From a virus (Duplodnaviria; Heunggongvirae; Uroviricota; Caudoviricetes), in the IMG/VR virus record IMGVR_UViG_2744054854_000005: a stretch of 36,635 nucleotides of DNA; one strand, 5' to 3'. Positions 11,778-35,930 of the stretch are shown in pieces. The notes below the pieces were generated by a model. The model was not told the DNA's origin, searched no databases, and saw only the letters and a list, made by a program, of their open reading frames with translations. Both the position numbers and the translations under genes were made by a program. Numbering within the stretch: position 1 is the stretch's first letter; each line of letters starts with the position of its first letter.

Positions 11778-13540
11778 AAAATCTCCACAATATTGCTGGT
11801 ATTGGCGGATTCGCCCTGCAGCGGTTCGTTAAACAGTGCGTGCATCGTTGCCCAGGCCAAATCTGCGTGGCTGGCTTCTTCGCTGCGGCTGGCTTCATAG
11901 GTAGGGCGGTTGCCGCTGGCGGTTGTGGCGCGGCGGATAGCCATAAAGGACTGCGCAATGTCGGTGTGCCCGGCGTCAAACTCCAGACGGCGGTGGCTGA
12001 TAATGTCGTATGCTTTGAGCACCAGGGCGTTTTTAATATTGGGGTTGTAGACAAACTCCCGGACAGCGGGAAAGAACGCTTTTACGTTCTCGTAAACGCC
12101 GTGACCGACGCCGGTCGAGTCGATGCCGATATAGGTCACGTTGTACTGCTGCGTCAGTTTTTTAATGGCGTCAGACTGGGCGCGGAAGTCCATCCCGCGC
12201 CACTGGTGTCGCTCCAGAATACGGAACTTCCCGCCCGGTACAGTGGGCGGTGCCATAACCACGCAGCCTGCGCTGTCACCGTTCTGCGTACCTTTCGCCG
12301 GGTCATAACCGATCCAGACTTCTCGCCAGCCAAACGGGCGCAGCGCCAGCGCCTGAAAATCTGTCCATACTTCCCAGCTGTCCACCATGCACGCCTGCAG
12401 CTCGCTGAGCGGGAATACTGACGCCAGATCGTCAATAAATTCGCACATCAGCAGGTTCTGGTATTCGTCAGGGCTGTACTCCATGCGCAGCTGGTCGAGG
12501 TCGAACAGATTACAGCCGCCGCGCACCGCATCCTCCACGGTGACGATCTGGCGATACTGTCCGTCCGGGCAGAGCACGCCGCGCGCAAGGTTGCTGTGGG
12601 TCAGGTCAATGTCCACCTTGTCTGCTTTGGCGCGGCCCCGGTTGAACAGCGCGCCGGACCAGAACGGATAGGCGCTGTGGGTCAGGCTGGACGGCGTGGA
12701 GAAGTAGGTTTGTCGCCATTTCTTGTGAATGGCCATACCGGAGGCAACCTTGCGCAACTCCTGGAATTTCGGTATCCAGAAATATTCATCAAGGTACAGG
12801 TTGCCGTGGTAGCTCTGCGCCGTGCGGGCGTTGGTGCCGAGGAAGTACAGGCACGCGCCGTTGCTGAGCGTCATCGGGTCGCCTTTCAGCTCAACATCCA
12901 CCTCTTTTGCAAAGTCGATGATGTACTGCTTAAAAACGTGTGCCTGCGCCTTACTGGCTGAGAGAAAAATCTGGTTGCGCCCCGTGGTGATGGCGTCAAT
13001 CAGCGCTTCGCGGGCAAAAAAGTATGTTGCCCCGATCTGGCGTGATTTAAGCAGGTTGCGAATGCGGTGTTTTACGCCTGCCTGCCACCAGTGGCGCTGA
13101 TATTCAAACATGCCGTTGCGGAAGATTTCCTCCAGCTTTTCGGTCTGTTCATCGGTAAAAACATTCTTTTCGGGCTGCCTGCGCGGGCCTTTGTTACGGT
13201 TGGCGACGTTTGGGTTTAAGTCAGCTTCGTTCCCGCCATCGTTAAATTTACCGATCCGGGCGTGGCGCTCTGACTGGCGCGCCAGCAGGTCAATTTCCTT
13301 GAAGTCTTTCCCTTCCTTCTGCTCCTTCATGATGAGCTGGCAGTAACGTGCGGCGGTGGTGAGCTGCATCTGATCCAGCGGCCCATAGTCGCCCCATTTG
13401 TCGCGCTTCTTCCAGCTGTGAACGGTTGCAACTTTCTCGCCCAGCATTTCAGCAATGCGGGCTACGCGGTATCCCTGAAAGTACAGCAGCATGGCCTGCC
13501 GACGGGGATCGAGGTCTGCGGGGGTCAGTGTGGTGTTCAT
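11774..13540 (-). CDS. P: terminase large (ATPase) subunit
   Basis: 588 aa, P2 gpP-like; divergent from the O N M L operon. Confidence 0.9.
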   Translation of the reverse strand: MNTTLTPADLDPRRQAMLLYFQGYRVARIAEMLGEKVATVHSWKKRDKWGDYGPLDQMQLTTAARYCQLIMKEQKEGKDFKEIDLLARQSERHARIGKFNDGGNEADLNPNVANRNKGPRRQPEKNVFTDEQTEKLEEIFRNGMFEYQRHWWQAGVKHRIRNLLKSRQIGATYFFAREALIDAITTGRNQIFLSASKAQAHVFKQYIIDFAKEVDVELKGDPMTLSNGACLYFLGTNARTAQSYHGNLYLDEYFWIPKFQELRKVASGMAIHKKWRQTYFSTPSSLTHSAYPFWSGALFNRGRAKADKVDIDLTHSNLARGVLCPDGQYRQIVTVEDAVRGGCNLFDLDQLRMEYSPDEYQNLLMCEFIDDLASVFPLSELQACMVDSWEVWTDFQALALRPFGWREVWIGYDPAKGTQNGDSAGCVVMAPPTVPGGKFRILERHQWRGMDFRAQSDAIKKLTQQYNVTYIGIDSTGVGHGVYENVKAFFPAVREFVYNPNIKNALVLKAYDIISHRRLEFDAGHTDIAQSFMAIRRATTASGNRPTYEASRSEEASHADLAWATMHALFNEPLQGESANTSNIVEIF

Positions 13541-13586
13541 GGCACAAACATACGGCCTTGACAGGCGGCTTTCCCCGGCTGCGGTT

Positions 13587-13604
13587 TGTGTGGTTTACCG
13601 TACA
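13587..13604 (+). promoter_or_regulatory. late-promoter activator site TGT-N12-ACA (Ogr-type) upstream of O
   Basis: TGTGTGGTTTACCGTACA, about 88 bp upstream of the O start; P2 late promoters carry this dyad near -55. Confidence 0.5.
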
Positions 13605-13682
13605 AGTGCCGCGCGTTGTTTCACTCCCCCCATCACCGCAAACATAAGGCTCCAGTAAGTTTTTTCTAACGGAGCACGGCTC

Positions 13683-14516
13683 ATGACAGTGAAAGCAAAG
13701 CGTTTCCGTATCGGGGTGGAAGGTGCCACCACTGACGGGCGCGAAATCCAGCGTGAATGGCTGGTACAGATGGCTGCCAGCTATAACCCGACGGTCTATA
13801 CCGCGCTGATTAACCTTGAGCACATCAAGTCTTATCTGCCGGACAGCACCTTTAACCGCTATGGCAGGGTGACGGGGCTGGTTGCAGAAGAAATCAAGGA
13901 CGGGCCGCTGGCGGGCAAGATGGCGCTTTATGCCGATATCGAACCCACGGACGCCCTGGTGGAACTGGTGAAGAAAGGCCAGAAGCTTTTCACCTCCATG
14001 GAGGTCAGCACGAAGTTTGCCGACACCGGTAAAGCCTATCTTGTGGGGCTGGGTGCGACGGACGATCCGGCGAGCCTTGGCACCGAAATGCTGGCATTCA
14101 GCGCCACCGCCGCGCATAACCCGCTGGCGAACCGTAAGCAGAACCCTGAAAACCTGTTTTCGGAAGCGGTTGAAACGCTGATTGAACTGGAAGAAGCCCA
14201 GGACGAAAAGCCGTCCCTCTTTGCCCGCGTCACCGCGCTGTTCACCAAAAAAGAGCAGACCGATGAGGCGCGTTTCTCCGATGTGCATAAAGCCGTGGAA
14301 CTTGTCGCCACCGAGCAGCAGAACCTGAGCGAACGCACGGATAAATCCCTGTCCGAACAGGACAAGCGCCTTTCTGAGCTGGAGTCCTCCCTGCAGGAGC
14401 AGCAGACCGCCTTTGCCGAGCTTGAGAAAAAGCTGAGCAGCGAAGACAGCCGAAAAGACTACCGCCAGCGCGCGCCGGGCGGTGACGCACCGGCAGGCAC
14501 CCTGACCAATTGCTGA
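13683..14516 (+). CDS. O: capsid scaffolding protein
   Basis: 277 aa, recalled as similar to P2 gpO (RIGVEGATTDGREI..., ends TLTNC). Confidence 0.9.
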   Translation: MTVKAKRFRIGVEGATTDGREIQREWLVQMAASYNPTVYTALINLEHIKSYLPDSTFNRYGRVTGLVAEEIKDGPLAGKMALYADIEPTDALVELVKKGQKLFTSMEVSTKFADTGKAYLVGLGATDDPASLGTEMLAFSATAAHNPLANRKQNPENLFSEAVETLIELEEAQDEKPSLFARVTALFTKKEQTDEARFSDVHKAVELVATEQQNLSERTDKSLSEQDKRLSELESSLQEQQTAFAELEKKLSSEDSRKDYRQRAPGGDAPAGTLTNC

Positions 14517-14532
14517 TGGAGCATAAAACCCG

Positions 14533-15594
14533 ATGAAAAAGAAAACCCGCTTTGCCTTTAACGCTTACCTGCAGCAGCTGGCGCGCCTGAACGGTGTGGA
14601 GATTGAAGAACTCTCCAGTAAGTTCACCGTAGAGCCGTCCGTGCAGCAGACGCTGGAAGACCAGATCCAGCAGTCCGCCGCTTTCCTGACGCTGATTAAC
14701 ATCACACCGGTCACTGAGCAGTCCGGGCAGTTGCTGGGGCTGGGCGTTGGCAGCACCATTGCCGGAACCACCGATACCACCACCAAAGAGCGCGAGCCTA
14801 CCGATCCGACGCTGATGGAAGACGTGGAATACAAATGCGAGCAGACCAACTTTGATACGGTGCTGACCTACGCAAAACTGGACCTGTGGGCGAAATTCCA
14901 GGACTTCCAGGTGCGTATCCGCAACGCCATCGTCAAGCGTCAGGCGCTGGACCGCATCATGATCGGCTTTAACGGCGTGAAGCGTGCCAAAACCTCCAAC
15001 CGTGCTGAGAACCCGCTGCTGCAGGACGTCAATAAAGGCTGGCTGCAGAAAATCCGCGAAGACGCGCCGGATCACGTCATGGGCAGCACCACGAAAGACG
15101 GTGCAACGACTGCAGGCGCGGTCAAGGTGGGCAAGGGCGGCGACTATGCCAACCTGGACGCCGTGGTGATGGATGCCGTCAACGAGCTGATCGACGCGGT
15201 TTATCAGGATGATGACGATCTGGTTGTCGTCTGCGGACGTGAACTGCTGTCTGACAAGTATTTCCCGCTGGTCAACAAAGAGCAGGACAACAGCGAGAAA
15301 ATCGCCGCCGATCTGATCATCAGCCAGAAACGTATGGGCGGCCTGCAGGCTGTGCGTGCGCCTTATTTCCCGGCAAATGCCCTGCTGATCACCCGTCTGG
15401 ATAACCTGTCCATCTACTGGCAGGAAGATACCCGACGCCGTTCTGTTATCGACAACCCGAAACGTGACCGGATTGAAAACTTTGAATCCGTCAACGAGGC
15501 GTATGTGGTCGAGGACTACCGCTGTGCGGCGCTGGTTGAAAACATTGAAATCGGTGATTTCAGCGCGCCTGCCGCACCGGAAGGTGGGGAATAA
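14533..15594 (+). CDS. N: major capsid protein
   Basis: 353 aa, P2 gpN-like, in conserved position. Confidence 0.9.
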   Translation: MKKKTRFAFNAYLQQLARLNGVEIEELSSKFTVEPSVQQTLEDQIQQSAAFLTLINITPVTEQSGQLLGLGVGSTIAGTTDTTTKEREPTDPTLMEDVEYKCEQTNFDTVLTYAKLDLWAKFQDFQVRIRNAIVKRQALDRIMIGFNGVKRAKTSNRAENPLLQDVNKGWLQKIREDAPDHVMGSTTKDGATTAGAVKVGKGGDYANLDAVVMDAVNELIDAVYQDDDDLVVVCGRELLSDKYFPLVNKEQDNSEKIAADLIISQKRMGGLQAVRAPYFPANALLITRLDNLSIYWQEDTRRRSVIDNPKRDRIENFESVNEAYVVEDYRCAALVENIEIGDFSAPAAPEGGE

Positions 15595-15597
15595 CAC

Positions 15598-16248
15598 ATG
15601 AGCCTGAGTCCCGCACGGCAGCACCGCCTGCGCATTCAGGCCGAACAGGCCGCCCGTGAGGGCGGCAGTGTTCGCCATGCGTCGGGCTATGACCTGATGC
15701 TGCTGCAGCTGGCAGAAGACCGCCGCCGCCTCAAGGGCGTCCAGTCCACGGTGAAAAAGGCGGAAATCAAGGTGGAGCTGCTGCCGAAATATTCCGCCTG
15801 GGCGGAGGGCGTGCTGGCTGCCGGAGGTGCGCAGCAGGATGACGTGCTGATGTACGTGATGCTGTGGCGTATCGACGCCGGTAATTATGCCGGTGCGCTG
15901 GAAATCGGGCGTCATGCGCTGCGCCATGGCTGGGTGATGCCGCTGGGCAACCGTAACGTGCAGACCGTGCTGGCAGAAGAAATGGCAGACGCGGCGCAGA
16001 GCGCTCTGCTAGCCGCAGCCGGTTTTGATGCCGATCTGCTTTTGCAGACGCTGGACCTGACAACCGATCTGGATATGCCGGACCAGTCGCGGGCGCGTCT
16101 GCATAAAGCCATCGGCGCTGTACTGAGCGAAAGTAACCCGGCATCTGCCCTGAATCACCTTACCCATGCGCTGCAGCTCGATCCCCGCTGTGGCGTGAAA
16201 AAAGAAAAGCAGCAGCTGGAGCGCAGACTGCGCAATGACAGCCGCTAA
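15598..16248 (+). CDS. M: terminase small (endonuclease) subunit
   Basis: 216 aa, P2 gpM-like. Confidence 0.85.
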   Translation: MSLSPARQHRLRIQAEQAAREGGSVRHASGYDLMLLQLAEDRRRLKGVQSTVKKAEIKVELLPKYSAWAEGVLAAGGAQQDDVLMYVMLWRIDAGNYAGALEIGRHALRHGWVMPLGNRNVQTVLAEEMADAAQSALLAAAGFDADLLLQTLDLTTDLDMPDQSRARLHKAIGAVLSESNPASALNHLTHALQLDPRCGVKKEKQQLERRLRNDSR

Positions 16249-16341
16249 AGAACGTGCCCCGCGCACGGGCGGCACGGGGTGGCGAAAGGCACTGCCACAT
16301 CAAAACCCCGTCCACCGCCCACTTATTCAGGAGAAAGCCGC

Positions 16342-16806
16342 ATGAAGTTTGTTGCGCCAGAACAGGCACCGGAACAGGCGGAGGTCATCAAAAATACGCC
16401 GTTCTGGCCTGATGTGGACCTGTCGGAATTTCGCAGTGTGATGCGCACTGATGGCACGGTGACGCAGCCGCGTTTAAAGCAGGTCGTGCTGACGGCGATC
16501 TCTGAGGTTAACGCTGAGCTGTACGACTTCCGCAAGCGTCAGCAGATGCTGAGCTGGCAGACACTTGCTGAGGTTCCTGCAGAAATGCTGGACGGTAAAA
16601 GCGAGCGTATCCAGCACTACCACAACGCTGTTTTTTGCTGGGCGCGCGCCGTGCTCAATGAGCGTTATCAGGACTATGACGCCACGGCGTCAGGCGTGAA
16701 GCGAGGGGAGGAGCTGGCGGAGGCCAGCGGCGATCTGTGGCGTGATGCCCGTTGGGCTATCAGCCGGGTGCAGGATGCACCGCACTGTACGGTGGAGCTT
16801 ATCTGA
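16342..16806 (+). CDS. L: head completion/stabilisation protein
   Basis: Internal ATG with AGGAGA ribosome-binding site; P2 gpL-like size and position. Confidence 0.8.
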   Translation: MKFVAPEQAPEQAEVIKNTPFWPDVDLSEFRSVMRTDGTVTQPRLKQVVLTAISEVNAELYDFRKRQQMLSWQTLAEVPAEMLDGKSERIQHYHNAVFCWARAVLNERYQDYDATASGVKRGEELAEASGDLWRDARWAISRVQDAPHCTVELI

Positions 16807-17009
16807 TGAAAGTGCGTGCGCATCAGTATGACACGGTGGACGCGCTTTGCTGGCGTCATTACGGGCGCACGCAGGGTGTCACTGAGCAGGTTCTGCAGGC
16901 AAATCCGGGGCTGGCTGAGTACGGCCCATTTTTACCGCACGGGCTGCAGGTGGAGCTGCCGGACATTACGGCGTCAACCACGGCGCAGACCGTCCAGCTA
17001 TGGGACTGA
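16806..17009 (+). CDS. X: tail protein X
   Basis: 67 aa (MKVRAHQYDTVDALCWRHYG...), ATG overlapping the L stop (TGATG). Confidence 0.75.
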   Translation: MKVRAHQYDTVDALCWRHYGRTQGVTEQVLQANPGLAEYGPFLPHGLQVELPDITASTTAQTVQLWD

Positions 17010-17012
17010 ATT

Positions 17013-17228
17013 ATGACGCTTGAACGAATCAGCGCCTTTATCACTTACTGCATCGCCGTGCTGCTGGCATGGCTGGGCGATCTGTCGCTCAAGGATGCGT
17101 CAACGGTTGGCGGCGTACTGATTGGTGTGCTGATGCTGGCTATCAACTGGTACTACAAACACCAGTCTTTCAAATTGTTACGTGGCGGCAAAATTTCGCG
17201 GGGGGAATATGAATCCTTCAATCGTTAA
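17013..17228 (+). CDS. Y: holin
   Basis: 71 aa with hydrophobic helices and a charged C-terminus, at the start of the lysis cassette. Confidence 0.7.
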   Translation: MTLERISAFITYCIAVLLAWLGDLSLKDASTVGGVLIGVLMLAINWYYKHQSFKLLRGGKISRGEYESFNR

Positions 17229-17718
17229 GCGCTGCCTTGTCGGGGCGGTGCTGGCTATCGCCGCCACGCTGCCCGGTTTCCAGTCGCTTCATACCTCCGT
17301 TGAGGGGCTGAAACTGATCGCCGATTACGAGGGATGCCGCCTGCAGCCTTATCAGTGCAGCGCGGGCGTGTGGACCGACGGGATCGGCAATACGTCCGGT
17401 GTGGTGCCGGGCAAAACTATCACGGAACGGCAGGCGGCGCAGGGACTTATCACCAATGTGCTGCGCGTGGAGCGGGCGCTGGAAAAATGTGTGGTGCAGC
17501 CGATGCCGCAAAAGGTCTATGACGCGGTGGTGTCGTTTGCTTTCAACGTGGGCACCGGCAACGCCTGCAGTTCCACGCTGGTTAAGTTGCTGAACCAGCG
17601 GCGCTGGGCGGATGCCTGCCATCAGCTGCCGCGCTGGGTGTATGTCAAAGGTGTGTTTAATCAGGGGCTGGACAACCGCCGCGCGCGGGAAATGGCCTGG
17701 TGCTTAAAAGGAGCATAA
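17209..17718 (+). CDS. K: endolysin (lysozyme-like, possible signal-anchor-release N-terminus)
   Basis: N-terminal hydrophobic segment then EGCRLQPYQCSAGVWTDGIGNT lysozyme-type motif; GGGGGA ribosome-binding site. Confidence 0.8.
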   Translation: MNPSIVKRCLVGAVLAIAATLPGFQSLHTSVEGLKLIADYEGCRLQPYQCSAGVWTDGIGNTSGVVPGKTITERQAAQGLITNVLRVERALEKCVVQPMPQKVYDAVVSFAFNVGTGNACSSTLVKLLNQRRWADACHQLPRWVYVKGVFNQGLDNRRAREMAWCLKGA

Positions 17719-17722
17719 CGGA

Positions 17723-18100
17723 ATGAAAAAGAAAGTCATGAGTGTTTTTTTCCAGCTGGCATGGGCTGCGCTGTTGGTTATCAGCCTGCTGTATCCGCGC
17801 AGCGGTGCGCCGGTTCTGGTTGGTGCGTCTGTCTGGGTGTCATGCTTCCTCGCCTGGCTGCTTGCTGCGCTGTGCGCTGTCGGGTGGTTCGCCGGAGATC
17901 GGGCACGCGATGAGGTCAGGGCGGCATTGCTGAAATTCAGGGCTCACCCTGTAAAACCCGTGCGTACATGGATAATCAGGCTGCTTATTGTTCTGTGCCT
18001 GGCGTTTTCGGGATGGGTGATCACCCTGGTGTTTTACCTGCTGACGCTGGTTCTGTATCAGATTGCCCGCGCGCAGCTTCATGAGCCGATGGCGGCCTGA
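17723..18100 (+). CDS. lysA: LysA-like membrane lysis accessory protein
   Basis: 125 aa, multi-pass hydrophobic; AAAGGAG ribosome-binding site. Confidence 0.6.
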   Translation: MKKKVMSVFFQLAWAALLVISLLYPRSGAPVLVGASVWVSCFLAWLLAALCAVGWFAGDRARDEVRAALLKFRAHPVKPVRTWIIRLLIVLCLAFSGWVITLVFYLLTLVLYQIARAQLHEPMAA

Positions 18101-18552
18101 TGCGTGCGCTGGCGGTAGTGCTGGCGCTGGCACTTGCGGCGCTGGGCTGGCAGTCGTGGCGGCTTAACAATGCCAGCAACACCATCGAGACGCAGGGCGC
18201 GGCGCTGAAAAGCAAAACGCAGGAGCTGACGAAGAAAAACAGCCAGCTGATTGGCCTGTCCATTCTGACCGAAACCAACAGCCGGGCGCAGACGCGACTT
18301 TATGCAACAGCGGAGCAGACCACCGCATTGCTGCGAAGCCGCCAGCGCCGGATCGAGGAACTGAAACGTGAAAACGAGGATTTGCGCCGCTGGGCTGACA
18401 CTCCTTTGCCTGCTGACATTATCCGGCTGCGGGAGCGTCCGGCCCTCGCCGGAGGTGCAGCTTACCGTGAGTGGCTGTCCCAGAGTGACGCAGTGCCGCC
18501 TGGAAAGGTCAGCGCCGCGCAGCAACGGCGATCTGAATACGGTGCTGGATGA
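18100..18552 (+). CDS. lysB: LysB (Rz-like i-spanin)
   Basis: N-terminal membrane anchor then coiled coil; position after lysA. Confidence 0.65.
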   Translation: MRALAVVLALALAALGWQSWRLNNASNTIETQGAALKSKTQELTKKNSQLIGLSILTETNSRAQTRLYATAEQTTALLRSRQRRIEELKRENEDLRRWADTPLPADIIRLRERPALAGGAAYREWLSQSDAVPPGKVSAAQQRRSEYGAG

Positions 18553-18658
18553 AACCGAGGCCGCCTGGGCGGTCTGTGCTGACAAAGTGGACACGATTAT
18601 TGCGTGTCAGGAGCGAGACAGTGAACAAACCGCAGTCCTTACGCAGCGCCCTGAATAA
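18368..18658 (+). CDS. lysC: LysC (Rz1-like o-spanin lipoprotein), embedded in and extending beyond lysB in another frame
   Basis: GTG start; signal peptide with lipobox LSGC. Confidence 0.55.
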   Translation: MKTRICAAGLTLLCLLTLSGCGSVRPSPEVQLTVSGCPRVTQCRLERSAPRSNGDLNTVLDETEAAWAVCADKVDTIIACQERDSEQTAVLTQRPE

Positions 18659-19052
18659 AGCAGTTGCCTACGTCCGCGATAATCCGGACAAGCTGCACCT
18701 TTTCGTTGATAACGGCTCAATGGTGGCAACCGGTGCCAGCTCCATGTCATGGGAGTACCGCTACACCCTGAATGTGGTGATCGAAGATTTCAGCGGCGAC
18801 CAGAATCTGCTGATGGCTCCTGTGCTGCTGTGGCTAAGTGACAACCAGCCGGATGCTATCAATAACCCGGAGCTGCGCGAAAAACTGTTCACCTTTGAAG
18901 TGGATATTCTGCGCAACGATGTGTGCGATATCAGCCTGAACCTGCAGCTGACGGAGCGCGTGCTGGTCAGCACTGACGGCAGCGTGTCGAGCGTTGAAGC
19001 GGTGCCGGAGCCGGACGAACCCGAAGAAATGTGGACGGTGAAACGTGGATGA
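18621..19052 (+). CDS. R: tail completion protein R
   Basis: GTG start with AGGAG 7 nt upstream, preferred over the ORF-track ATG at 18549; P2 gpR-like. Confidence 0.7.
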   Translation: MNKPQSLRSALNKAVAYVRDNPDKLHLFVDNGSMVATGASSMSWEYRYTLNVVIEDFSGDQNLLMAPVLLWLSDNQPDAINNPELREKLFTFEVDILRNDVCDISLNLQLTERVLVSTDGSVSSVEAVPEPDEPEEMWTVKRG

Positions 19053-19491
19053 ACTGCAGAGGATGGATGACTGGCTGACGGCGTTACTGGCGAATCTGGA
19101 GCCTGCCGCGCGCAGCCGTATGATGCGGCAACTGGCGCAACAACTGCGCCGGACGCAGCAGCAGAACATCAGGCTGCAGCGTAATCCTGACGGCAGCGGC
19201 TATGAGCCGCGCCGGGTGACTGCCCGGAGCAAGAAGGGACGCATCAAACGCCAGATGTTTGCAAAGCTTCGCACCACAAAATACCTGAAAACCGCCGCCA
19301 GTGCGGACTCCGCCAGCGTGCAGTTTGATGGCAAGGTGCAGCGCATTGCCCGTGTTCACCATTACGGCCTGCGGGATCGCGTCAGCCGAAAAGGCCCGGA
19401 GGTCCGCTACGCAGAGCGCCGCCTGCTGGGCGTGAATGAAGAAGTGGAAACCGTCACCCGTGACACCCTGCTGCGCTGGCTGGCGGGGTGA
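19045..19491 (+). CDS. S: tail completion protein S
   Basis: 148 aa, P2 gpS-like. Confidence 0.85.
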   Translation: MDELQRMDDWLTALLANLEPAARSRMMRQLAQQLRRTQQQNIRLQRNPDGSGYEPRRVTARSKKGRIKRQMFAKLRTTKYLKTAASADSASVQFDGKVQRIARVHHYGLRDRVSRKGPEVRYAERRLLGVNEEVETVTRDTLLRWLAG

Positions 19492-19495
19492 TCTT

Positions 19496-19513
19496 TGTGC
19501 CACCGCTGGTACA
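19496..19513 (+). promoter_or_regulatory. late-promoter activator site TGT-N12-ACA upstream of V
   Basis: TGTGCCACCGCTGGTACA, about 55 bp upstream of the V start. Confidence 0.45.
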
Positions 19514-19559
19514 AGCGCTCGCACTGCCTCCCTTTTCCCTCTGATGGCAACCTTTCGTT

Positions 19560-20138
19560 ATGAACGCACAACTGACCGAAATTATGCGCCTTATCACCAA
19601 CCTGATCCGCACCGGCACCGTGACCGAAGTGGACCGGGAAAACTGGCTGTGCCGGGTGAGAGTGGGCGAGCTTGAAACCAACTGGATTAACTGGCTGACG
19701 CTGCGTGCCGGTGGTGCCCGTACATGGTGGTGTCCGTCGCCGGATGAGCAGGTGGTGCTGCTGAGTATGGGCGGCAATCTGGAAACCGCTTTTGCGTTGC
19801 CTGCCATCTATTCCAATCAGTTTGCGCCGCCGTCGGACTCCGTGGACGGTTGCGTGACGGAGTACCCGGACGGAGGCTGGTTTGAGTATGAACCCGCCAC
19901 CGGGCGGTGGCATGTCCGGGGTATCAAATCCATGGTGATCGAGGCGGCGGACAATATCACTCTCAAAACCGGTGAGTTTGTGGTGGAGGCTGACACCACG
20001 CGCATTAACAGCGAGATGGTGATCAATGGCGGCGTCACCCAGGGCGGCGGCGCGATGAGTTCCAACGGGATCGTGGTGGATAAACACGGTCACACCGGCG
20101 TTAAGTCCGGCGGCGATACGTCAGGAGGACCGGTATGA
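19560..20138 (+). CDS. V: baseplate spike protein V
   Basis: 192 aa, P2 gpV-like. Confidence 0.85.
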   Translation: MNAQLTEIMRLITNLIRTGTVTEVDRENWLCRVRVGELETNWINWLTLRAGGARTWWCPSPDEQVVLLSMGGNLETAFALPAIYSNQFAPPSDSVDGCVTEYPDGGWFEYEPATGRWHVRGIKSMVIEAADNITLKTGEFVVEADTTRINSEMVINGGVTQGGGAMSSNGIVVDKHGHTGVKSGGDTSGGPV

Positions 20139-20494
20139 CGCTGTATATCGGCATGAGCCAGGGCAACGGCAAGGCCATTACTGATACTGACCATCTGCGC
20201 CAGTCAGTGCGGGATATTCTGCTGACCCCACAGGGCAGCCGGATCGCCCGCCGGGAATATGGTTCCCTGCTATCCGCCCTGATTGACCAGCCGCAGAACC
20301 CGGCGCTACGCCTGCAGGTCATGTCTGCGGTCTATGTGGCGCTGAGTCGCTGGGAGCCACGGCTTACGCTGGATTCCATCACCATCAGCAGCAATTTTGA
20401 CGGCTCCATGGTGGTTGAGCTTACCGGGCAGCGCAATAACGGCGCGTCGGTTTCCCTTTCCGTATCAACAGGAGCAGACAATGGCAGTGATTGA
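20135..20494 (+). CDS. W: baseplate protein W (gp25-like)
   Basis: 119 aa, P2 gpW-like. Confidence 0.85.
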   Translation: MTLYIGMSQGNGKAITDTDHLRQSVRDILLTPQGSRIARREYGSLLSALIDQPQNPALRLQVMSAVYVALSRWEPRLTLDSITISSNFDGSMVVELTGQRNNGASVSLSVSTGADNGSD

Positions 20495-21389
20495 CCTTTC
20501 CCAGTTGCCCGCGCCGCAGATAGTGGACGTGCCGGATTTTGAGACGCTGCTGGCTGAGCGCAAGGCCGCATTTGTGGCCCTTTATCCGGCGGATGAGCAG
20601 GACGCGGTGCGGCGCACGCTGGCGCTGGAATCTGAACCCGTCACCAAGCTTCTGCAGGAAAGCACCTACCGTGAAATCCTTTTGCGCCAGCGTATTAACG
20701 AGGCCGCGCAGGCGGTCATGGTGGCGTATGCCATCGGCGGCGATCTCGATCAGCTGGCAGCCAACTACAACGTGAAACGCCTGACGGTAACGCCTGCCGA
20801 CAACGACGCGGTGCCGCCGGTCGCGGCAGTAATGGAAAGCGATGAGGCACTGCGCCTGCGTGTTCCGGCTGCGTTTGAAGGTTTGTCCGTTGCAGGACCG
20901 ACGGCGGCCTATGAGTTTCACGCCAAAAGCGCGGACGGGCGCGTGGCGGATGCCAGCGCAACCAGCCCGGCACCGGCGGAGGTGGTGCTTACCGTACTGA
21001 GCCGTGAGGGTGACGGTACGGCAGAGGCTGATCTGCTGGCGGTGGTGGAGCAGGCGCTTAACAGTGAGAACGTGCGCCCGGTGGCAGACCGCCTGACGGT
21101 GCGCAGCGCCGAAATAATCCCGTACAGCGTGGATGCGACGATCTTTCTTTATCCGGGGCCGGAAGCTGAGCCGGTGATGGCGGCGGCAAAAGCTAGCCTG
21201 CAGAAGTACATCGCCAGCCAGACGCGGCTGGGCCGTGATATCCGTCGCAGCGCCATTTATGCCGCGCTGCACGTTGAGGGTGTCCAGCGTGTGGAACTGG
21301 CCTCCCCGCTGGATGATATGGTGCTGGATAAGACGCAGGCGGCATCCTGTACGGAATGGAGCGTAACCAACGGGGGCACGGATGAATAG
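20481..21389 (+). CDS. J: baseplate protein J
   Basis: Internal ATG with AGGAG ribosome-binding site; P2 gpJ-like. Confidence 0.85.
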   Translation: MAVIDLSQLPAPQIVDVPDFETLLAERKAAFVALYPADEQDAVRRTLALESEPVTKLLQESTYREILLRQRINEAAQAVMVAYAIGGDLDQLAANYNVKRLTVTPADNDAVPPVAAVMESDEALRLRVPAAFEGLSVAGPTAAYEFHAKSADGRVADASATSPAPAEVVLTVLSREGDGTAEADLLAVVEQALNSENVRPVADRLTVRSAEIIPYSVDATIFLYPGPEAEPVMAAAKASLQKYIASQTRLGRDIRRSAIYAALHVEGVQRVELASPLDDMVLDKTQAASCTEWSVTNGGTDE

Positions 21390-21987
21390 CCTGCTGCCGC
21401 CCGGTTCATCGCCGCTTGAGCGCCGACTGGCGCAGACCTGCAGCGGCATTTCCGATCTGCAGGTGCCGCTGCGCGACTTGTGGAACCCGGCAACGTGTCC
21501 GGTCAGCTTTCTGCCGTATCTGGCGTGGGCGTTTTCCGTCGACCGCTGGGACGAAAGCTGGACGGAGAGCGTCAAGCGCCGGATGGTGCAGGACGCTTTC
21601 TATATCCATCAGCACAAGGGGACAACCAGCGCTGTGCGGCGCGTGGTGGAGCCGTTCGGCTTCCTGATCCGCATCATTGAGTGGTGGCAGACCGGCGAAA
21701 CGCCGGGGACGTTTCGCCTTGATATTGGCGTGCAGGAACAAGGCATCACGGAAGAAACCTATCTGGAACTTGAGCGGCTGATCGGTGATGCCAAACCGTG
21801 CAGCCGTCACCTGATCGGCATGTCCATCAACCTGCAGACCAGTGGGCCGTATTTTATGGGGGCTGCCACTTACACCGGCGAAGAAATCACGATCTACCCG
21901 TATATCAACGAAACCATTATTTCCGGCGGCACCGCTTATGAGGGCGGGGCAGTCCATGTTATTGACACAATGAGAGTAAATCCATGA
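21382..21987 (+). CDS. I: baseplate/tail protein I
   Basis: 201 aa, P2 gpI-like. Confidence 0.8.
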   Translation: MNSLLPPGSSPLERRLAQTCSGISDLQVPLRDLWNPATCPVSFLPYLAWAFSVDRWDESWTESVKRRMVQDAFYIHQHKGTTSAVRRVVEPFGFLIRIIEWWQTGETPGTFRLDIGVQEQGITEETYLELERLIGDAKPCSRHLIGMSINLQTSGPYFMGAATYTGEEITIYPYINETIISGGTAYEGGAVHVIDTMRVNP

Positions 21988-22975
21988 GCGCAAAATTTTA
22001 CACCCTGCTGACGGAAATCGGGGCGGCGAAACTGGCAAGCGCCGCCGCGCTCGGCATTCCGTTGAAAATTACCCAGATGGCGGTGGGCGACGGTGGTGGC
22101 GTATTACCAACGCCAAGCGCGCAACAGACCGCGTTAGTTGCTGAAAAACACCGCGCCGCGCTGAATATGCTGTATATCGATCCGCAGAACAGCAGCCAGA
22201 TTATTGCTGAGCAGGTGATCCCCGAAACGGAGGGAGGTTGGTGGATTCGTGAGGTAGGTCTGTTTGATGAGACTGGAGCACTGATTGCTGTGGGCAACTG
22301 CCCGGAGAGCTACAAACCGCAGCTGGCGGAGGGGAGCGGGCGCACGCAGACCGTGCGCATGGTGTTGATTACCAGCAGCACAGATAACATCACCCTGAAA
22401 ATTGATCCGGCAGTGGTGCTGGCGACCCGTAAATATGTTGATGACAAGGTGCTGGAACTAAAGGTGTATGTGGATGACCTGATGGCTAGACACCTTGCAG
22501 CTGCAGATCCTCATACGCAGTATGCACCAAAAGCCAGTCCGACATTCACTGGTACGCCAAAAGCACCAACGGCAGCGGCAGGCAATAATTCCACGCAACT
22601 TGCTAATACGGCTTTTGTGCAGGCGGCAATTGCTGCACTGGTGGCATCTTCCCCTGCAGCTCTGGATACACTGAATGAGCTGGCAGCAGCGCTGGGGAAC
22701 GATCCAAATTTTGCCGCCACCATGACAAATGCGCTTGCCGGAAAGATGGATAAGGCAGCCAATGGGACGGACATTGCCGACGTATCAGAATTTCTCAAAA
22801 ACCTTGGAATTAAATCGGCAGCACTGTGTGATGTGGGTGCGGGTACAAACCAAATCCCCGACATGGGTTCGTTTGGAATATTGAAAAACGCGATCGGATA
22901 TCAGTATCTACCAGGTGGACTGATTTTGCAGTGGGGTAAAGTTGGCCCAACCAACGCAGGGCAAACTACAAACGT
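21984..22975 (+). CDS. H: tail fiber protein H, N-terminal conserved part; 3' end lost in assembly gap
   Basis: N-terminus MSAKFYTLLTEIGAAKLA... typical of P2-family tail fibers; ORF runs into the N run. Confidence 0.8.
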
Positions 22976-23075
22976 NNNNNNNNNNNNNNNNNNNNNNNNN
23001 NNNNNNNNNNNNNNNNNNNNNNNNNNNNNNNNNNNNNNNNNNNNNNNNNNNNNNNNNNNNNNNNNNNNNNNNNNN
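22976..23075. other. assembly gap (100 N) in the variable tail-fiber region
   Basis: Run of n characters; 100 is a conventional placeholder length, so the missing sequence may be much longer. Confidence 0.95.
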
Positions 23076-23399
23076 TTGATTGAAATTACCCATGTGCTTC
23101 ACCTCCAATTTTGTGGTGCAGCTCCCTCCGGTAAAAAGCTGGGGTCAGTGAATGGGATGCCTGGTTGGGTTGATGTGCCGCCACTGACTGCAGTTGAGTT
23201 GCTGGCAGCGGTAGTAATTAAAAAACAATCGCTCATCAGTGAGGCGAACGTGGTAATCGCACCGCTAAAAGATGCGTCAGATGGTGGATATATCGATGCT
23301 GCAGACGCACCACGACTTGATGCATGGCAGCGATACCGTTATGCGTTAACGAAGGTGGACGCTGCTAACCCGGTGTGGCCGGATAAGCCAGCACAATAA
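23076..23399 (+). CDS. G: tail fiber assembly protein, C-terminal part; 5' end in gap
   Basis: C-terminus ...PRLDAWQRYRYALTKVDAANPVWPDKPAQ is the hallmark ending of Tfa/gpG-type chaperones; the ORF track fuses it to H only because the Ns are read as codons. Confidence 0.6.
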   Translation: MIEITHVLHLQFCGAAPSGKKLGSVNGMPGWVDVPPLTAVELLAAVVIKKQSLISEANVVIAPLKDASDGGYIDAADAPRLDAWQRYRYALTKVDAANPVWPDKPAQ

Positions 23400-23726
23400 T
23401 AACTATTTATATTTTATGGAAAATGGCAGGCTATCTTGGATACCCTGAAATATGAATCATAAATACTGACAAAATATGTTTATATGTTACCTGAAAAGTC
23501 GTTGCAATGCTCCACACAGCCAGTCGCGCAAGGAAGTGGCTGGATATAGCGGGTCAAGATCAGAGTTTGAATCGAGTCGTGATGGGGGGCGAGGTACACT
23601 AATGGCTTAGGGAAAGGGTAGCATTGACTTGGTTTTCATGTCAATGCTAAAATTATACTTTATTATTTATGAATGCTCTTGGTGTAATTATTAAGAGCAA
23701 ATCTAATGGCGGCAAGGATTTATTTG

Positions 23727-24833
23727 ATGAGTTTGCTAAGTAGGTTTTGGGGGGAATGGTTTAAAAGTTATGGTGATACTGATTTTATAACGGGCATTCG
23801 TGCTTTTGCTATTCTTTCAGTTATTCTTATTCATTCCGGTGGCGCTGGTCTTCGTTATTTTGGATGGTATGGTAATAATTTAGCAAACTTGGGTGCAATG
23901 GGGCCGTGTATTTTTTTTGTTATATCCGGTTATAGTGTTTCTGTGTCATATGAGAAATCATCTTGTTATTTGTCCTTTCTAAAAAATAGAATATTAAGAA
24001 TTGCCCCATTATATTATTTTTGGATTGTTGTCTTCATTTTGTTATTTCAGGGGGTTGGGTATTGGGGGGAGAGATATGGCGCATCCTTAAATTTTTATAA
24101 TTTATTAATGCACATCTCATTCTTAAGTTTTGCTGATTATAGAGTGGCGAATTCAATATTAGGCGTTGAATGGTCTTTATCCATTGAAGTTTTCTGGTAT
24201 ATTTTTTTACCGGCAATCATTCTCGTAATGAGAAGTAAAACGTCAGTATGCATAATGTTAATTACGTCCTGGTTATTATTTACGATATCCTTGATTATAT
24301 TGAAGTCTTACTCCTCCCCTAACAACGGTGATGTAATGATCGCATATTATTGGACTCCATTTCCGTATTTTTTCTCGTTTTGTGCTGGTGTGGCAGCATA
24401 TAGGGTGCGGTCTTGGTGGAGATTTTCAGGGTTAAGTGCAGATATTGCATTGTTATTGTCTATAACACTCATTCTTTTATATCCCATTATGGAAAGATAT
24501 AGTGTTAACAAAATAATCGATAAGCCCGTTCTATTCTCCATGCTCACTATGGTGAACATTTCCGTTGGGAATAAAGATGGTCATATATTACGATCTTTAT
24601 TATGTAATAAAGTATCTATATTTATTGGTTCGATAAGTTATAGTCTGTATTTATCTCATTATGTAGTTATTTTTTTGGTTGGGCCGTACCTAACTGAATT
24701 TAAAGAAAACTCTATATGGCATTTTATAATATTCCTACTAATATCTATAATTGGAAGTGTTTTTACTTATATCTTAATAGAAAGGGTGTTAACTGATAAA
24801 ATAAAGCATTTTATTGACTCGAGAATGAAATAG
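23727..24833 (+). CDS. acyltransferase family 3 integral membrane protein (OafA/Oac-like, possible O-antigen acetylase)
   Basis: Motif ITGIRAFAILSVILIHSGG near the N-terminus and about 10 hydrophobic helices; very AT-rich. ATG at 23727 has an AAGGA ribosome-binding site; the ORF-track ATG at 23706 does not. Confidence 0.75.
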   Translation: MSLLSRFWGEWFKSYGDTDFITGIRAFAILSVILIHSGGAGLRYFGWYGNNLANLGAMGPCIFFVISGYSVSVSYEKSSCYLSFLKNRILRIAPLYYFWIVVFILLFQGVGYWGERYGASLNFYNLLMHISFLSFADYRVANSILGVEWSLSIEVFWYIFLPAIILVMRSKTSVCIMLITSWLLFTISLIILKSYSSPNNGDVMIAYYWTPFPYFFSFCAGVAAYRVRSWWRFSGLSADIALLLSITLILLYPIMERYSVNKIIDKPVLFSMLTMVNISVGNKDGHILRSLLCNKVSIFIGSISYSLYLSHYVVIFLVGPYLTEFKENSIWHFIIFLLISIIGSVFTYILIERVLTDKIKHFIDSRMK

Positions 24834-24915
24834 GCAGCATTAATTAAATCACAATAATTGATCTGGAAGCTCTATAGTGCCGGGTGCAACATAATGCACT
24901 TTGTTGCTGCAAACA

Positions 24916-24950
24916 ATTAGCGCAAGATGACGATGTTGCCTTGCGCTAAT
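24916..24950 (+). terminator. hairpin with 11-bp perfect arms (ATTAGCGCAAG / CTTGCGCTAAT) and 13-nt loop downstream of the acyltransferase
   Basis: Seen in sequence; followed by AT-rich sequence rather than a clean T-run, so terminator function is uncertain. Confidence 0.35.
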
Positions 24951-25039
24951 ATATTAAATTCACACCAGCGTCAAACTTGCGCCCCTTCATCACCGCCTCA
25001 TCAGTGATTATCATCCTCGCTTCAAAATCAACCTTTGAA

Positions 25040-25065
25040 AATGGTCACCTATATAGGTGACCATT
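25040..25065 (-). terminator. 26-bp perfect palindrome AATGGTCACCTATATAGGTGACCATT, 5 bp after the stop of the minus-strand 140-aa gene, followed on that strand by TTTT
   Basis: Seen in sequence. Position and U-run fit an intrinsic terminator; perfect symmetry would also fit a dimeric protein-binding site. Confidence 0.45.
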
Positions 25066-25069
25066 CGGG

Positions 25070-25492
25070 TTAATGCAGCGTTGTAGTTGAGCTGGACTCT
25101 GCCATTGCCACTGTCAATTCATCGCCTTCGGCTGAGATCTTAATGGTATTACTTCCTTCTGATTTAGCGCCTTTTGGTAGACCTAGCTGATCATAGATAC
25201 ACAAGAATCTTGAATCATTTATAAAGGTGATTTCTGTTACAGTCCCACCTTCAACGACCTTAGAGTCTATTGATTTTATCAAATTGATATCCTGAACATT
25301 AATGTGCTTTATCGCATCCCAGTTAAGGCTGATGTCCACGTTATCCTTTTGCATCGTTATCACATGACCGGCCTTATGCTGGGTTGTGACTTTTCCATCA
25401 GGGCTCATCGTAATCTTTTGCCCCATGTGATAAATAATTTGAGTTCCGTCTTCGAGACACTCGATTTTTGGCTCTTTAGTAAAGTCGTTCAT
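25070..25492 (-). CDS. hypothetical protein, no recognisable domain
   Basis: 140 aa, AAGGA ribosome-binding site, AT-rich, divergent from the invertase gene. Confidence 0.55.
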   Translation of the reverse strand: MNDFTKEPKIECLEDGTQIIYHMGQKITMSPDGKVTTQHKAGHVITMQKDNVDISLNWDAIKHINVQDINLIKSIDSKVVEGGTVTEITFINDSRFLCIYDQLGLPKGAKSEGSNTIKISAEGDELTVAMAESSSTTTLH

Positions 25493-25697
25493 GAAAATCC
25501 TTCAATTATCTGTTGCTGGAAGGTGCTAATCTACACGAATCCTTGGTTATGTATGTAATGAGGCTCTAGAAATCCACTTGAATATAAATAAATTTTTATG
25601 GTGTTGGCTTGTAATGCTCGCGTAGCTCTTTGTCAAAAGTGAAACTCTGATAACCTGGTTCTACTGACGAACAGAAGGATGAGCAGGAGATCGCTTT

Positions 25698-26258
25698 ATG
25701 ATTATTGGGTATGCACGAGTATCAAGTAATCATCAGGACACCGAGCTTCAGATGCAGGCGCTCAGAGCTGCTGGCTGTAAGTTAATTTTTGAGGAAAAGG
25801 CTTCTGGCCGTAAGACGAATCGACCAATCTTGAAGAAAGTGGTTGAGATGCTTGAACCCGGTGACGAACTGGTCATCTGGAAGTTAGATCGTATCGGTCG
25901 CAATGTACTGCACGCATTATTGACCTTTCAGAGCCTCGCAGAACGCAATGTTAATATTCGTTCTATTACAGATGGCGTTGACCTGAGCACTGCCAGTGGG
26001 CGCTATAACTTCCGTAATATTCTCTCTGCGGCACAATATGAGTCTGATCTGAATAGTGAACGCACTCTGGCAGGGTTAGCGGTTGCCCGCGCTAAGGGGA
26101 GGATTGGCGGACGTAAGCCTAAGTATACTGATGAGCACTGGGATGCGTTTGAACGGGAAATTAAGTCCGGCTGCTCACATCGTGATATAGCTCTCAAATA
26201 TGGGGTCGGCCTGTCGACTCTCTACAAACGTTATCCGGCTCAGCAAGAGCATCACTAA
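25698..26258 (+). CDS. serine recombinase, DNA invertase (Hin/Gin/Cin/Pin family)
   Basis: 186 aa; N-terminal catalytic region MIIGYARVSSNHQ with the catalytic serine, and C-terminal HTH (GCSHRDIALKYGVGLSTLYKRY). AGGAGA ribosome-binding site. Confidence 0.85.
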   Translation: MIIGYARVSSNHQDTELQMQALRAAGCKLIFEEKASGRKTNRPILKKVVEMLEPGDELVIWKLDRIGRNVLHALLTFQSLAERNVNIRSITDGVDLSTASGRYNFRNILSAAQYESDLNSERTLAGLAVARAKGRIGGRKPKYTDEHWDAFEREIKSGCSHRDIALKYGVGLSTLYKRYPAQQEHH

Positions 26259-26343
26259 ACACTCTTTGCGTTCATTTTTGCACTGTGCAGAATGTGTCTT
26301 TTTGGCACCTTCTGGCAGTGCAAAATTTATCGCGTTTTGGTGC

Positions 26344-26383
26344 AAAAAAAATCGCCGCGCTACAATCTGCGGGGATTTTTTTT
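26344..26383. terminator. bidirectional intrinsic terminator (A8-TCGCCGC-loop-GCGGGGA-T8)
   Basis: GC stem flanked by an A-tract and a T-tract, between the invertase and the FI late promoter. Confidence 0.55.
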
Positions 26384-26394
26384 GCCCCTTCCAT

Positions 26395-26412
26395 TGTGCC
26401 ATTCTCCACACA
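26395..26412 (+). promoter_or_regulatory. late-promoter activator site TGT-N12-ACA upstream of FI
   Basis: TGTGCCATTCTCCACACA, about 84 bp upstream of the FI start. Confidence 0.5.
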
Positions 26413-26486
26413 TAGCCCGGTGCGTGCGCAGTGCGCATATCAACCAGAACATAGGCAGACACCCTGTAAACCGGAGAGACTGCCTT

Positions 26487-27659: not shown

Positions 27660-27668
27660 GGGGACACC

Positions 27669-28184: not shown

Positions 28185-28238
28185 TTAACCTTAACGGCGC
28201 GGGAAGCCGCGCCAGTATTTCATTAACAGGAAACGAAC

Positions 28239-28541: not shown

Positions 28542-28675
28542 CGGTTGATGATCTGGTGGCAGATATTGCCACCATCTTTCACTGGTCGCCGTCCATCACT
28601 GACGTTATGCCGCTGACTGATGTGCTGGAGTGGCGGCATAAGGCAATTCAGAGAAGCGGGGCCAGCGATGAGTGA
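28239..28675 (+). CDS. E': tail assembly chaperone E+E' (programmed -1 frameshift product)
   Basis: Slippery TTTTTTG at 28496..28502. The -1 frame was translated by hand and is open to TGA at 28673..28675 (VAEVGACRFADNLTVDDLVADIATIFHWSPSITDVMPLTDVLEWRHKAIQRSGASDE), ending just inside the tape-measure start. Confidence 0.6.
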
Positions 28676-35901: not shown

Positions 35902-35930
35902 AGCCCTCAACGCGAGGGCTTGTCAGACGA

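Follow-up and report, generated by a model that had tools for sequence, protein, structure and literature searches.

Conserved TTGT-N12-ACA dyads as probable late-activator operators in a Fels-2/186-like prophage of E. coli

The four late promoters of phage P2, which depend on Ogr, have the consensus TGT-N12-ACA (PMC3931495). The contact of P2 Ogr with the RNA polymerase alpha subunit was established through the genetics of rpoA109, which is suppressed by Ogr mutations; Ogr is thus known to bind these sites, and P2 late transcription to require both Ogr and the C-terminal domain of alpha (PMC11434276). For comparison we used the RefSeq annotations of P2 (NC_001895) and 186 (NC_001317), in which late activator sites are recorded at pO/pP, pV and pF of P2 and at pV/p12 and pJ of 186, with center-to-start distances of 55.5–57.5 bp. 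The annotated sites are imperfect (TGT-N12-CCA or -CAA), so an exact match to the consensus is neither necessary nor sufficient. The late motif of the Ralstonia phages phiRSY1/RSA1 is TGTTGT-N13-ACAACA (PMC5694545). A hyphenated TGT...ACA dyad precedes the same four operons in the Ralstonia phages and in Stenotrophomonas Smp131, and the published PP' and PO' of Smp131 are a single stretch read from either strand (PMC5694545, PMC3931495).

Here we examine a stretch of 36,635 nucleotides (IMG/VR record IMGVR_UViG_2744054854_000005; hereafter the window). It is a Fels-2/186-like prophage of the P2 family, not P2 proper, in E. coli, and it adjoins ybjL. Fels-2 of Salmonella Typhimurium LT2 (NC_010463) shares ~93–94% DNA identity with the window over the late region; its record carries no annotated activator sites.

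Late operons and the activator gene

The late genes form four operons in the same gene order as in P2, followed by a gene for a putative activator:

10728..13540, minus strand: P-Q late operon (terminase large subunit, portal), assigned by synteny with Fels-2
13683..19491, plus strand: O-to-S late operon (scaffold, capsid, small terminase, head completion, lysis, tail completion), assigned by synteny with Fels-2
19560..23399, plus strand: V-W-J-I-H-G late operon (baseplate, tail fiber, fiber assembly)
26487..33024, plus strand: FI-FII-E-T-U-D late operon (sheath, tube, tape measure, tail)
33115..33333, plus strand: Ogr/B-type late activator gene (72 aa, CX2CX22CX4C)

The start codons of O and V are the ATGs at 13683 and 19560. 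The true FI ATG is at 26487, although the longest open reading frame begins at 26292. The V-G operon includes a Caudo_TAP domain (Pfam; 23100–23396). Unlike in the window, S and V are separated in P2 by orf30 and a terminator. The region just before FI is occupied by an acyltransferase/recombinase island in the window, by fun(Z) in P2 and by an invertible tail-fiber segment in Fels-2.

As in P2, an Ogr-family C4 zinc-finger activator is encoded after gene D. The window's activator matches Pfam Ogr_Delta (PF04606; 33115–33330, E 5e-22) and is 69% identical to its Fels-2 homologue, 54% to 186 B and 51% to P2 Ogr, with the four cysteines invariant across all four proteins.

Probable activator dyads upstream of O, V and FI

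The earlier note on this DNA reported exact TGT-N12-ACA elements upstream of O, V and FI. They are indeed present, at 13587–13604 (TGTGTGGTTTACCGTACA), 19496–19513 (TGTGCCACCGCTGGTACA) and 26395–26412 (TGTGCCATTCTCCACACA), and all three have the extended form TTGT-N12-ACA:

13586..13605, no strand assigned: shared P/O activator dyad, TTGT-N12-ACAA, center 13595.5, an exact match found in 80/80 relatives
19495..19514, plus strand: PV activator dyad, TTGT-N12-ACAA, center 19504.5, 4 nt past the S stop codon
26339..26388, no strand assigned: intrinsic terminator acting in both directions (A8, GC stem, T8), which ends the cargo island immediately ahead of the PF dyad
26394..26412, plus strand: PF activator dyad, TTGT-N12-ACA, center 26403.5, 6 nt past the terminator repeat

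By synteny with Fels-2, P2 and 186, these dyads lie at the heads of all four late operons, with P and O sharing one. The sites match the annotated activator positions of P2 and 186 and occur together with an Ogr_Delta gene, which supports the proposal that they mark late promoters of the P2 type activated by an Ogr homologue. The description of the FI site as lying immediately after a cargo island and its terminator is also accurate: the low-GC island is real, and so is the 20-nt inverted repeat (26339–26358/26369–26388) with A8 and T8 runs on its flanks.

The arrangement resembles that of 186 in several respects. In 186, a single B site, annotated as activating both promoters, separates the terminase gene from the divergent scaffold gene; 78 nt separate the end of the dyad from the scaffold ATG; a terminator (t45) is followed directly by a B site before the sheath gene; and the left half of the dyad reads TTGTG(T/C). 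The 186 sites differ from those of the window in reading TGT-N12-CCA rather than ending in ACA, and, ahead of the 186 homologue of V (orf32), the right half of the site is degenerate and the record leaves the site unannotated. None of the annotated P2 sites is exact (two end in -CCA, one in -CAA), whereas all three sites of the window are. In Fels-2, the P/O dyad is identical to that of the window and the V and FI dyads are homologous and at the same distances, with a different spacer in the FI dyad (TGTACCAGCACTGACACA). The Ralstonia and Burkholderia phages differ in their N13 spacer and longer arms.

The dyads are conserved among the IMG/VR relatives. Across 238 loci with usable upstream sequence, and within expected slots only 3–8 bp wide, an exact dyad is present at every one (O, 80/80; V, 79/79; FI, 79/79). 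The dyad begins 93–97 nt before the O ATG in all 80 relatives, 64–66 nt before the V ATG at the 79 loci of V homologues for which upstream sequence was available (55 unique sequences beside the window's own, with 34 different dyads listed), and 87–94 nt before the FI ATG in 79 relatives (75 unique upstream sequences beside the window's own, with many spacer variants). TTGT and ACA are invariant, and the 12-bp spacer is free to vary, with information near zero at several positions.

These data bear on two other readings of the dyads. A motif with six specified bases carries little information, and the three matches could be chance hits with no regulatory role. The bare motif is weakly enriched, with 14 occurrences in the window where 7.95 ± 3.05 are expected; a count of 14 is attained in 3 of 100 shuffles. 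The 11 further exact matches lie mostly in coding sequence: nine are inside genes, one (13529–13546) overlaps the P start codon and is not conserved, and one (1112) falls in the intergenic gap separating int from the neighboring gene. With genes as listed, only the three target sites and the match at 1112 are wholly non-genic. P2 and 186 contain five and two exact matches, respectively, none at a late promoter. The bare count is by itself no proof, and the background scan that the earlier note proposed does show the bare motif in coding sequence as often as background would predict. That makes the six-base motif uninformative but does not make the three sites chance hits, since they still stand apart from that background. 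Outside the slots, the same loci contain 0.06–0.27 exact dyads per kb. A position weight matrix trained on the relatives scores the O, V and FI sites at 24.7, 25.6 and 26.8 bits, compared with 11.2 bits for the next non-target site and a maximum of 16.1 over 30 shuffles. Each of the three matches falls within ~3 bp of the position predicted from P2 and 186, for which we estimate p near 3e-10 from the shuffle expectation. Chance is thus almost certainly the wrong explanation, and the conservation data effectively refute it. Alternatively, the dyads could bind a host regulator such as CRP (TGTGA-N6-TCACA) instead of a phage activator: their left halves read TGTG, and the site at 26395 fits the CRP consensus with two mismatches. 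The spacing is wrong for CRP, however, with an 18-bp N12 dyad in place of a 16-bp site that has N10 between TGT and ACA. CRP-like matches are not enriched in the window (12 against 14.7 expected) and include only the site at 26395 among the three, while the dyads co-occur with the Ogr_Delta gene and match the annotated P2 and 186 activator sites. We therefore regard a host-regulator role as very improbable.

Operators for the prophage's own Ogr/B-family zinc-finger activator, acting at four late promoters, remain the preferred interpretation of the three dyads, with a probability of roughly 0.9; binding itself is predicted from these comparisons.

Core promoters and the start of the P-Q transcript

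When late promoters of the window and related phages are aligned on their dyads, the −10-like hexamers of 15 of the 16 promoters share one index; the exception is 186 p32, whose row has no comparable hexamer. The four hexamers of the window are as follows:

13547..13552, minus strand: PP −10-like hexamer TATGTT, at the index of TAGCCT of P2 PP and 186 p12
13640..13645, plus strand: PO −10-like hexamer AAACAT, at most 1 nt from the index of GAAACT in P2 PO and 186 pV (starts annotated)
19548..19553, plus strand: PV −10-like hexamer CAACCT, at the index of CAATCT of P2 PV
26447..26452, plus strand: PF −10-like hexamer GAACAT, at the index of GAAAAT of P2 PF and CAATAA of 186 pJ

The nAAnnT pattern is kept at a fixed 44.5 bp from the dyad center to position −11. 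In the relatives, the PP hexamer has a TAGGCT variant in which T−12, A−11 and T−7 are kept; A−11, A−10 and T−7 stand out by information content at PV; and A-CAT is nearly invariant at PF, at a fixed distance from the dyad. A consensus scan found no full sigma-70 promoter near any of the three sites: the −10 element is recognizable and there is no −35 element, the pattern of a core promoter that depends on an activator.

All start points given here are predictions by homology to annotated starts (for PP, P2 start site 3016 and the 3' end of the 186 p12 feature; for PF, P2 17626–17628 and 186 pJ +1 14159). The alignment places +1 55.5 bp from the dyad center for PP, PV and PF and 55.5–58.5 bp from it for PO. 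The rightward PO transcript would start at ~13651–13654, with a leader of ~30 nt before the O ATG. PF is predicted to start at ~26459, upstream of an FI ATG that is preceded by GGAG. The predicted PV start, 19560, is the A of the V ATG and would make V leaderless, as in P2, where the V transcript is annotated as starting at the first base of the V coding sequence.

The claim that the leftward P/Q promoter has no matching dyad does not hold. The P/O dyad serves both directions, as annotated in P2 and 186, and scores 24.7 bits toward O and 18.4 bits toward P. Its center lies 87.5 bp from the O ATG and 55.5 bp from the P ATG, the latter distance being the same in Fels-2; the center of the common pO/pP site of P2 is 55.5 bp from both annotated starts. 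The P ATG is thus at the equivalent of the mapped +1 of P2 PP and 186 p12, 7 nt past a conserved TAnnnT hexamer, and the predicted leftward +1 (13540) is the A of the P start codon. The alignment to the P proteins of P2 and 186 runs from Met1, and the sequence upstream of the P ATG contains no Shine-Dalgarno element. In both P2 and 186, by contrast, a 23-nt leader bearing a Shine-Dalgarno sequence precedes P or its homologue. Because +1 is predicted to fall on the ATG and no Shine-Dalgarno precedes it, the P mRNA (the P-Q transcript) is probably leaderless, like that of P2 gene V.

The same layout, a −10 element, 6–7 nt and then the ATG, occurs in Gegevirus, Duonihilunusvirus, Aresaunavirus and Tigrvirus genomes. 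We lean slightly toward the view that the Fels-2 group, and apparently several other Peduoviridae genera, make a leaderless P mRNA, with P2 and 186 as the exceptions, and that P-Q and V-G both begin leaderless with the same geometry. Few sources of leaderless genes are known in E. coli, and P2 is one of them (PMC4633059).

A conventional P leader would be obtained if the P promoter used a separate, degenerate site. One candidate, TGTTTCACTCCCCCCATCA (13618–13635), is a dyad with one mismatch, located 31 bp rightward of the exact dyad, and would place the leftward start near 13571, giving a leader of ~30 nt. There is, however, no −10-like hexamer where that start would need one (13576–13586 on the minus strand reads AACCGCAGCCG), the candidate falls outside the top 20 matrix matches, and the P ATG would still have no Shine-Dalgarno. 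The P2 and 186 records give one site for both promoters, TATGTT/TAGGCT has exactly the same index as the PP −10 of P2 and 186, and the spacing from −10 to ATG recurs in the four genera named above. A separate P site is accordingly unlikely, and we retain the shared P/O dyad as the site for both directions.

By the usual view, a transcript that starts on its ATG is poorly translated in E. coli (PMC4633059), which speaks against a leaderless P and would be slightly odd for a terminase.

Late transcription in the prophage family

In the proposed mechanism, induction would lead to expression of the activator gene (33115–33333), and the activator would bind each TTGT-N12-ACA(A) site, centered ~55.5 bp upstream of the transcript start. 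The bound activator would recruit host sigma-70 RNA polymerase to weak promoters with a −10 element (nAAnnT) and no −35 element. At the P/O site, polymerase would be recruited on both sides, giving rise to the rightward O-S and leftward P-Q operons. The V transcript would start on its own ATG as in P2, and P likewise in this phage group, so that both mRNAs would be leaderless.

The proposed leaderless P is the one modestly new point in what is otherwise the textbook P2/186 arrangement. For annotation, the dyads fix the late-operon boundaries and probable starts in a prophage family common in E. coli, Salmonella, Klebsiella and Yersinia. The extended matrix (TTGT-N12-ACAA plus position) finds late promoters cleanly, whereas bare TGT-N12-ACA does not. 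At the edge of a hypervariable cargo slot, the FI promoter has stayed intact, which explains why cargo can be swapped at this point while expression of the tail genes is left undisturbed. If the terminase mRNA is indeed leaderless, P would become the second conserved late gene of this kind on a very short enterobacterial list.

Prophage identity and the activator gene

Over the late region (13000-21000), the window shares 93-94% identity with Salmonella prophage Fels-2, Salmonella phage SEN8 and Yersinia phage MLG42, and approximately 86% with a group of Klebsiella and E. coli P2-family phages. Its genes keep the Fels-2 order from end to end: int, cI and the early genes, then Q and P (leftward), O-S, V-G, a variable slot, FI-D and an ogr-like gene. 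The right flank, containing ybjL, ybjM, grxA and ybjC (33340-36635), matches E. coli strain D72 at 100% identity, and 5420 of the 5426 complete E. coli genomes carry it. These matches identify the window as a Fels-2/186-like prophage in E. coli, whose right end falls between the ogr-like gene (ending at 33333) and ybjL (ending at 33569). The ogr-like gene (33115-33333) encodes an Ogr_Delta zinc finger (Pfam E 5e-22; CX2CX22CX4C) that shares 69% identity with its Fels-2 homologue, 54% with 186 B and 51% with P2 Ogr.

The sequence is masked by N runs at 8622-8663 and 22976-23075. The latter fuses H (tail fibre) and G (fibre assembly) into a single apparent 471-aa ORF (21984-23399) and could also conceal an inversion crossover site. 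A 558-aa ORF (1137-2813, minus strand) with DUF4041 and T5orf172/MUG113 domains separates int from cI, a space left empty in Fels-2, and is probably a second cargo gene.

Conservation of three late-region dyads

We found exact TGT-N12-ACA dyads upstream of O, V and FI, as the earlier note had claimed:

13587-13604, P/O dyad, upstream of O (ATG 13683)
19496-19513, V dyad, upstream of V (ATG 19560)
26395-26412, FI dyad, upstream of FI (ATG 26487)

The FI ATG at 26487 is preceded by GGAG and gives a product of 390 aa, the same as in Fels-2; the start of the longest ORF, at 26292, is not the FI start.

With only six specified bases, the bare motif matches the window 14 times, compared with 7.95 ± 3.05 times in shuffled sequence (3 of 100 shuffles reach 14). 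Nine of the remaining 11 exact matches fall within genes; of the other two, one spans the P start codon and the other is intergenic, beside int. The earlier note had held that a similar frequency in coding sequence would count against the sites; the bare motif is indeed similarly frequent there, so the question needed other evidence, and it is conservation and a weight matrix (PWM) that set the three sites apart.

For each of O, FI and V we fetched 80 IMG/VR loci from relatives. An exact dyad is present in 80/80 O loci (52 unique upstream sequences), starting 93–97 nt ahead of the O ATG, in 79/79 usable FI loci (75 unique upstream sequences, not counting the window's own), starting 87–94 nt ahead of the FI ATG and showing dozens of distinct spacers, and in 79/79 usable V loci (55 unique, counted likewise), starting 64–66 nt ahead of the V ATG with many spacers. 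Outside these slots the same loci contain 0.06–0.27 exact dyads per kb. In dyad-anchored alignments the TGT, the T before it and the ACA are invariant, and an A follows the ACA in 73% of sites. Information is close to nil at several spacer positions, and flanking sequence shows little conservation in the V and FI sets. A hyphenated dyad bound by a protein would be expected to leave such a footprint. A scan of IMG/VR with P2 gpO, meant to broaden diversity, returned only near-identical P2 copies.

A PWM of 26 columns, built from 105 sites of relatives and from none of the window's own sequences, scores the FI, V and P/O dyads at 26.8, 25.6 and 24.7 bits, respectively. No unrelated site in the window exceeds 11.2 bits, and 30 shuffles peak at 16.1 bits; even when read in reverse, the P/O dyad scores 18.4 bits, above every unrelated site. 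Together with the conservation, these scores exclude the reading of the three dyads as chance matches to a short, common motif. CRP-type sites, another class of dyad to which they might belong, are also excluded, having the wrong spacing, and CRP-like matches show no enrichment.

Four further dyads were considered individually:

1112-1129, exact dyad TGTGATTGCTATGAAACA, centred 55.5 bp from position 1065 and located in the short stretch ahead of int (ATG 1053)
4572-4591, full 20-bp TTGT-N12-ACAA TTGTAAGCTGGATTTAACAA, in the early region past a fil-like ORF
13529-13546, exact dyad TGTGGTGTTCATGGCACA, overlapping the P start codon (CAT, 13538-13540)
30271-30290, full TTGT-N12-ACAA, inside tape-measure gene T

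The dyad beside int lacks the flanking T, has a low score outside the top PWM matches and was taken as chance. The early-region dyad, kept in Fels-2 (L001, 2988-3005), lies over the stop codon of a plus-strand ORF and within a 152-aa minus-strand ORF (4478-4936) with no family match; its flanks are conserved too, so its conservation is no sign of a site. The dyad in T is presumed to be chance because its PWM score is below 5.0, outside the 20 best matches. The dyad over the P start codon, absent from the earlier note's list, has half-sites like the real ones (TGTGCC), but its position suits no promoter and it was also taken as chance. An exact dyad occurs at a comparable offset in only 17 of the 52 unique relatives' upstream sequences, most relatives having right-arm substitutions, and its PWM score of 11.2 is inside the shuffle range. 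If bound, it would cover the predicted P start point.

Promoter geometry and the shared P/O dyad

P2 late promoters are documented to depend on Ogr and to share the TGT-N12-ACA consensus (PMC3931495; PMC5694545), and Ogr is genetically linked to the polymerase alpha subunit through rpoA109 (PMC11434276). We took mapped starts and sites from the RefSeq feature tables of P2 and 186:

P2 3057-3087, activator-binding site 'pO, pP promoters'
P2 3016, minus strand, P-operon start
P2 3127, plus strand, O-operon start
P2 10239-10266, pV site; V-operon start at 10308, the first base of the V CDS
P2 17555-17583, pF site; starts at 17626-17628
186 3798-3817, B-protein site 'for activation of pV and p12', between two divergent promoters
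186 14091-14110, B site before pJ, directly past terminator t45; pJ +1 at 14159

With the best 18-bp dyad placed within each annotated site, the distance from dyad centre to start is 55.5 bp for PO, 55.5 bp for PP, 56.5 bp for PV and 57.5 bp for PF in P2, and 56.5 bp for pV, 55.5 bp for p12 and 57.5 bp for pJ in 186. The dyads in the annotated sites of P2 (3063, 10243, 17561) and 186 (3800, 14093) have right halves of -CCA or -CAA, and none is an exact TGT-N12-ACA; the exact matches in P2 (5) and 186 (2) are all elsewhere. An exact-motif scan of these genomes thus misses every true late promoter and yields chance matches only. The window's three sites come closer to the consensus than do those of either model phage.

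A gapless, dyad-anchored alignment of 16 promoters (four each from P2, 186, the window and Fels-2) places a -10-like hexamer at a common index in 15 cases, the exception being the 186 p32 row, where no comparable hexamer is seen.

PP, 13552 to 13547, minus strand: TATGTT (P2/186 TAGCCT); predicted +1 at 13540
PO, 13640-13645: AAACAT, one base further (P2/186 GAAACT); predicted +1 at about 13651-13654
PV, 19548-19553: CAACCT (P2 CAATCT); predicted +1 at 19560
PF, 26447-26452: GAACAT (P2 GAAAAT, 186 CAATAA); predicted +1 at about 26459

Among relatives, -11 A and -7 T are more informative than neighbouring positions. No full sigma-70 consensus promoter was found near any of the three dyads, as expected of activator-dependent promoters.

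The earlier note had found no dyad for the leftward P/Q promoter. The single P/O dyad, however, lies approximately 55.5 bp from the predicted starts in both directions and so serves both promoters, as in P2 and 186; in Smp131, PP' and PO' are described at identical coordinates on opposite strands (PMC3931495). That P instead uses its own degenerate dyad at 13618-13635 is unlikely, as that element scores low with the PWM and lacks a suitably spaced -10. With the shared site so corrected, the annotated P2 and 186 sites, the geometry and the activator gene support the assignment of the three sites to Ogr-type late promoters.

The FI dyad lies immediately past a cargo island and its terminator, a placement already noted from the sequence and borne out by the GC profile (0.30–0.42 over 23400-26300, compared with 0.55–0.60 for the backbone) and an inverted repeat:

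23706-24833, Acyl_transf_3 membrane acyltransferase
25070-25492, minus strand, 140-aa ORF with no family match
25698-26258, serine recombinase, 50% identical to the Fels-2 tail-fibre invertase
26339-26388, bidirectional terminator closing the island, 6 nt ahead of the FI dyad's TTGT

The order of terminator and dyad matches that of t45 and the B site in 186. The island contains a good sigma-70-like promoter (TTGACT, 18 nt, TAAAAT, with TG; 23624-23653). A search for a Fels-2-like invertible tail-fibre segment near the recombinase gave no convincing long inverted repeats in 21900-26450 (22976-23075 being masked), and no duplicated inverted fibre segment was found in the cargo-island area. At the end of gene S, 5 nt ahead of the V dyad, a hairpin (19464-19490) has a 10-bp stem (6 GC pairs) and a weak T tail. 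Given the terminator annotated downstream of S in P2, this hairpin may limit transcriptional read-through out of the O operon.

A probably leaderless terminase mRNA

The P homologues of P2 and 186 have a 23-nt leader carrying GAGG. In the window and Fels-2, by contrast, the intergenic region is 23 bp shorter on its P side, which places the P ATG (13540) exactly at the index of the mapped +1, 7 nt past the end of TATGTT, with 6 nt in between. No Shine-Dalgarno sequence precedes this ATG, and the start codon is not mis-called, since the N-terminal sequence, MNTTLTPADLDPRRQA, lines up with that of P2 and 186 P from Met1 onward. In relatives the hexamer becomes TAGGCT, with T-12, A-11 and T-7 kept. 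The same layout of hexamer, 6–7 nt and ATG precedes P in one genome each of Klebsiella Gegevirus, Yersinia Duonihilunusvirus, Ralstonia Aresaunavirus and Burkholderia Tigrvirus (L324, L325, L329 and L331); it is not found in one Eganvirus or one P2-like Klebsiella phage, both of which retain the leader. The position of the ATG, the missing Shine-Dalgarno, the confirmed start and the recurrent layout together suggest that the mRNA of P, the terminase large subunit, is probably leaderless in this phage.

Leaderless genes are known from P2 (PMC4633059, citing Christie & Calendar 1985), in agreement with the RefSeq V-operon start on the P2 V ATG; the window V has the same geometry. The late-promoter arrangement is ordinary, well-understood regulation in a new member of the P2/186/Fels-2 family. 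Its sole modestly new element, on sequence grounds, would be a leaderless terminase mRNA, here and in several other genera.
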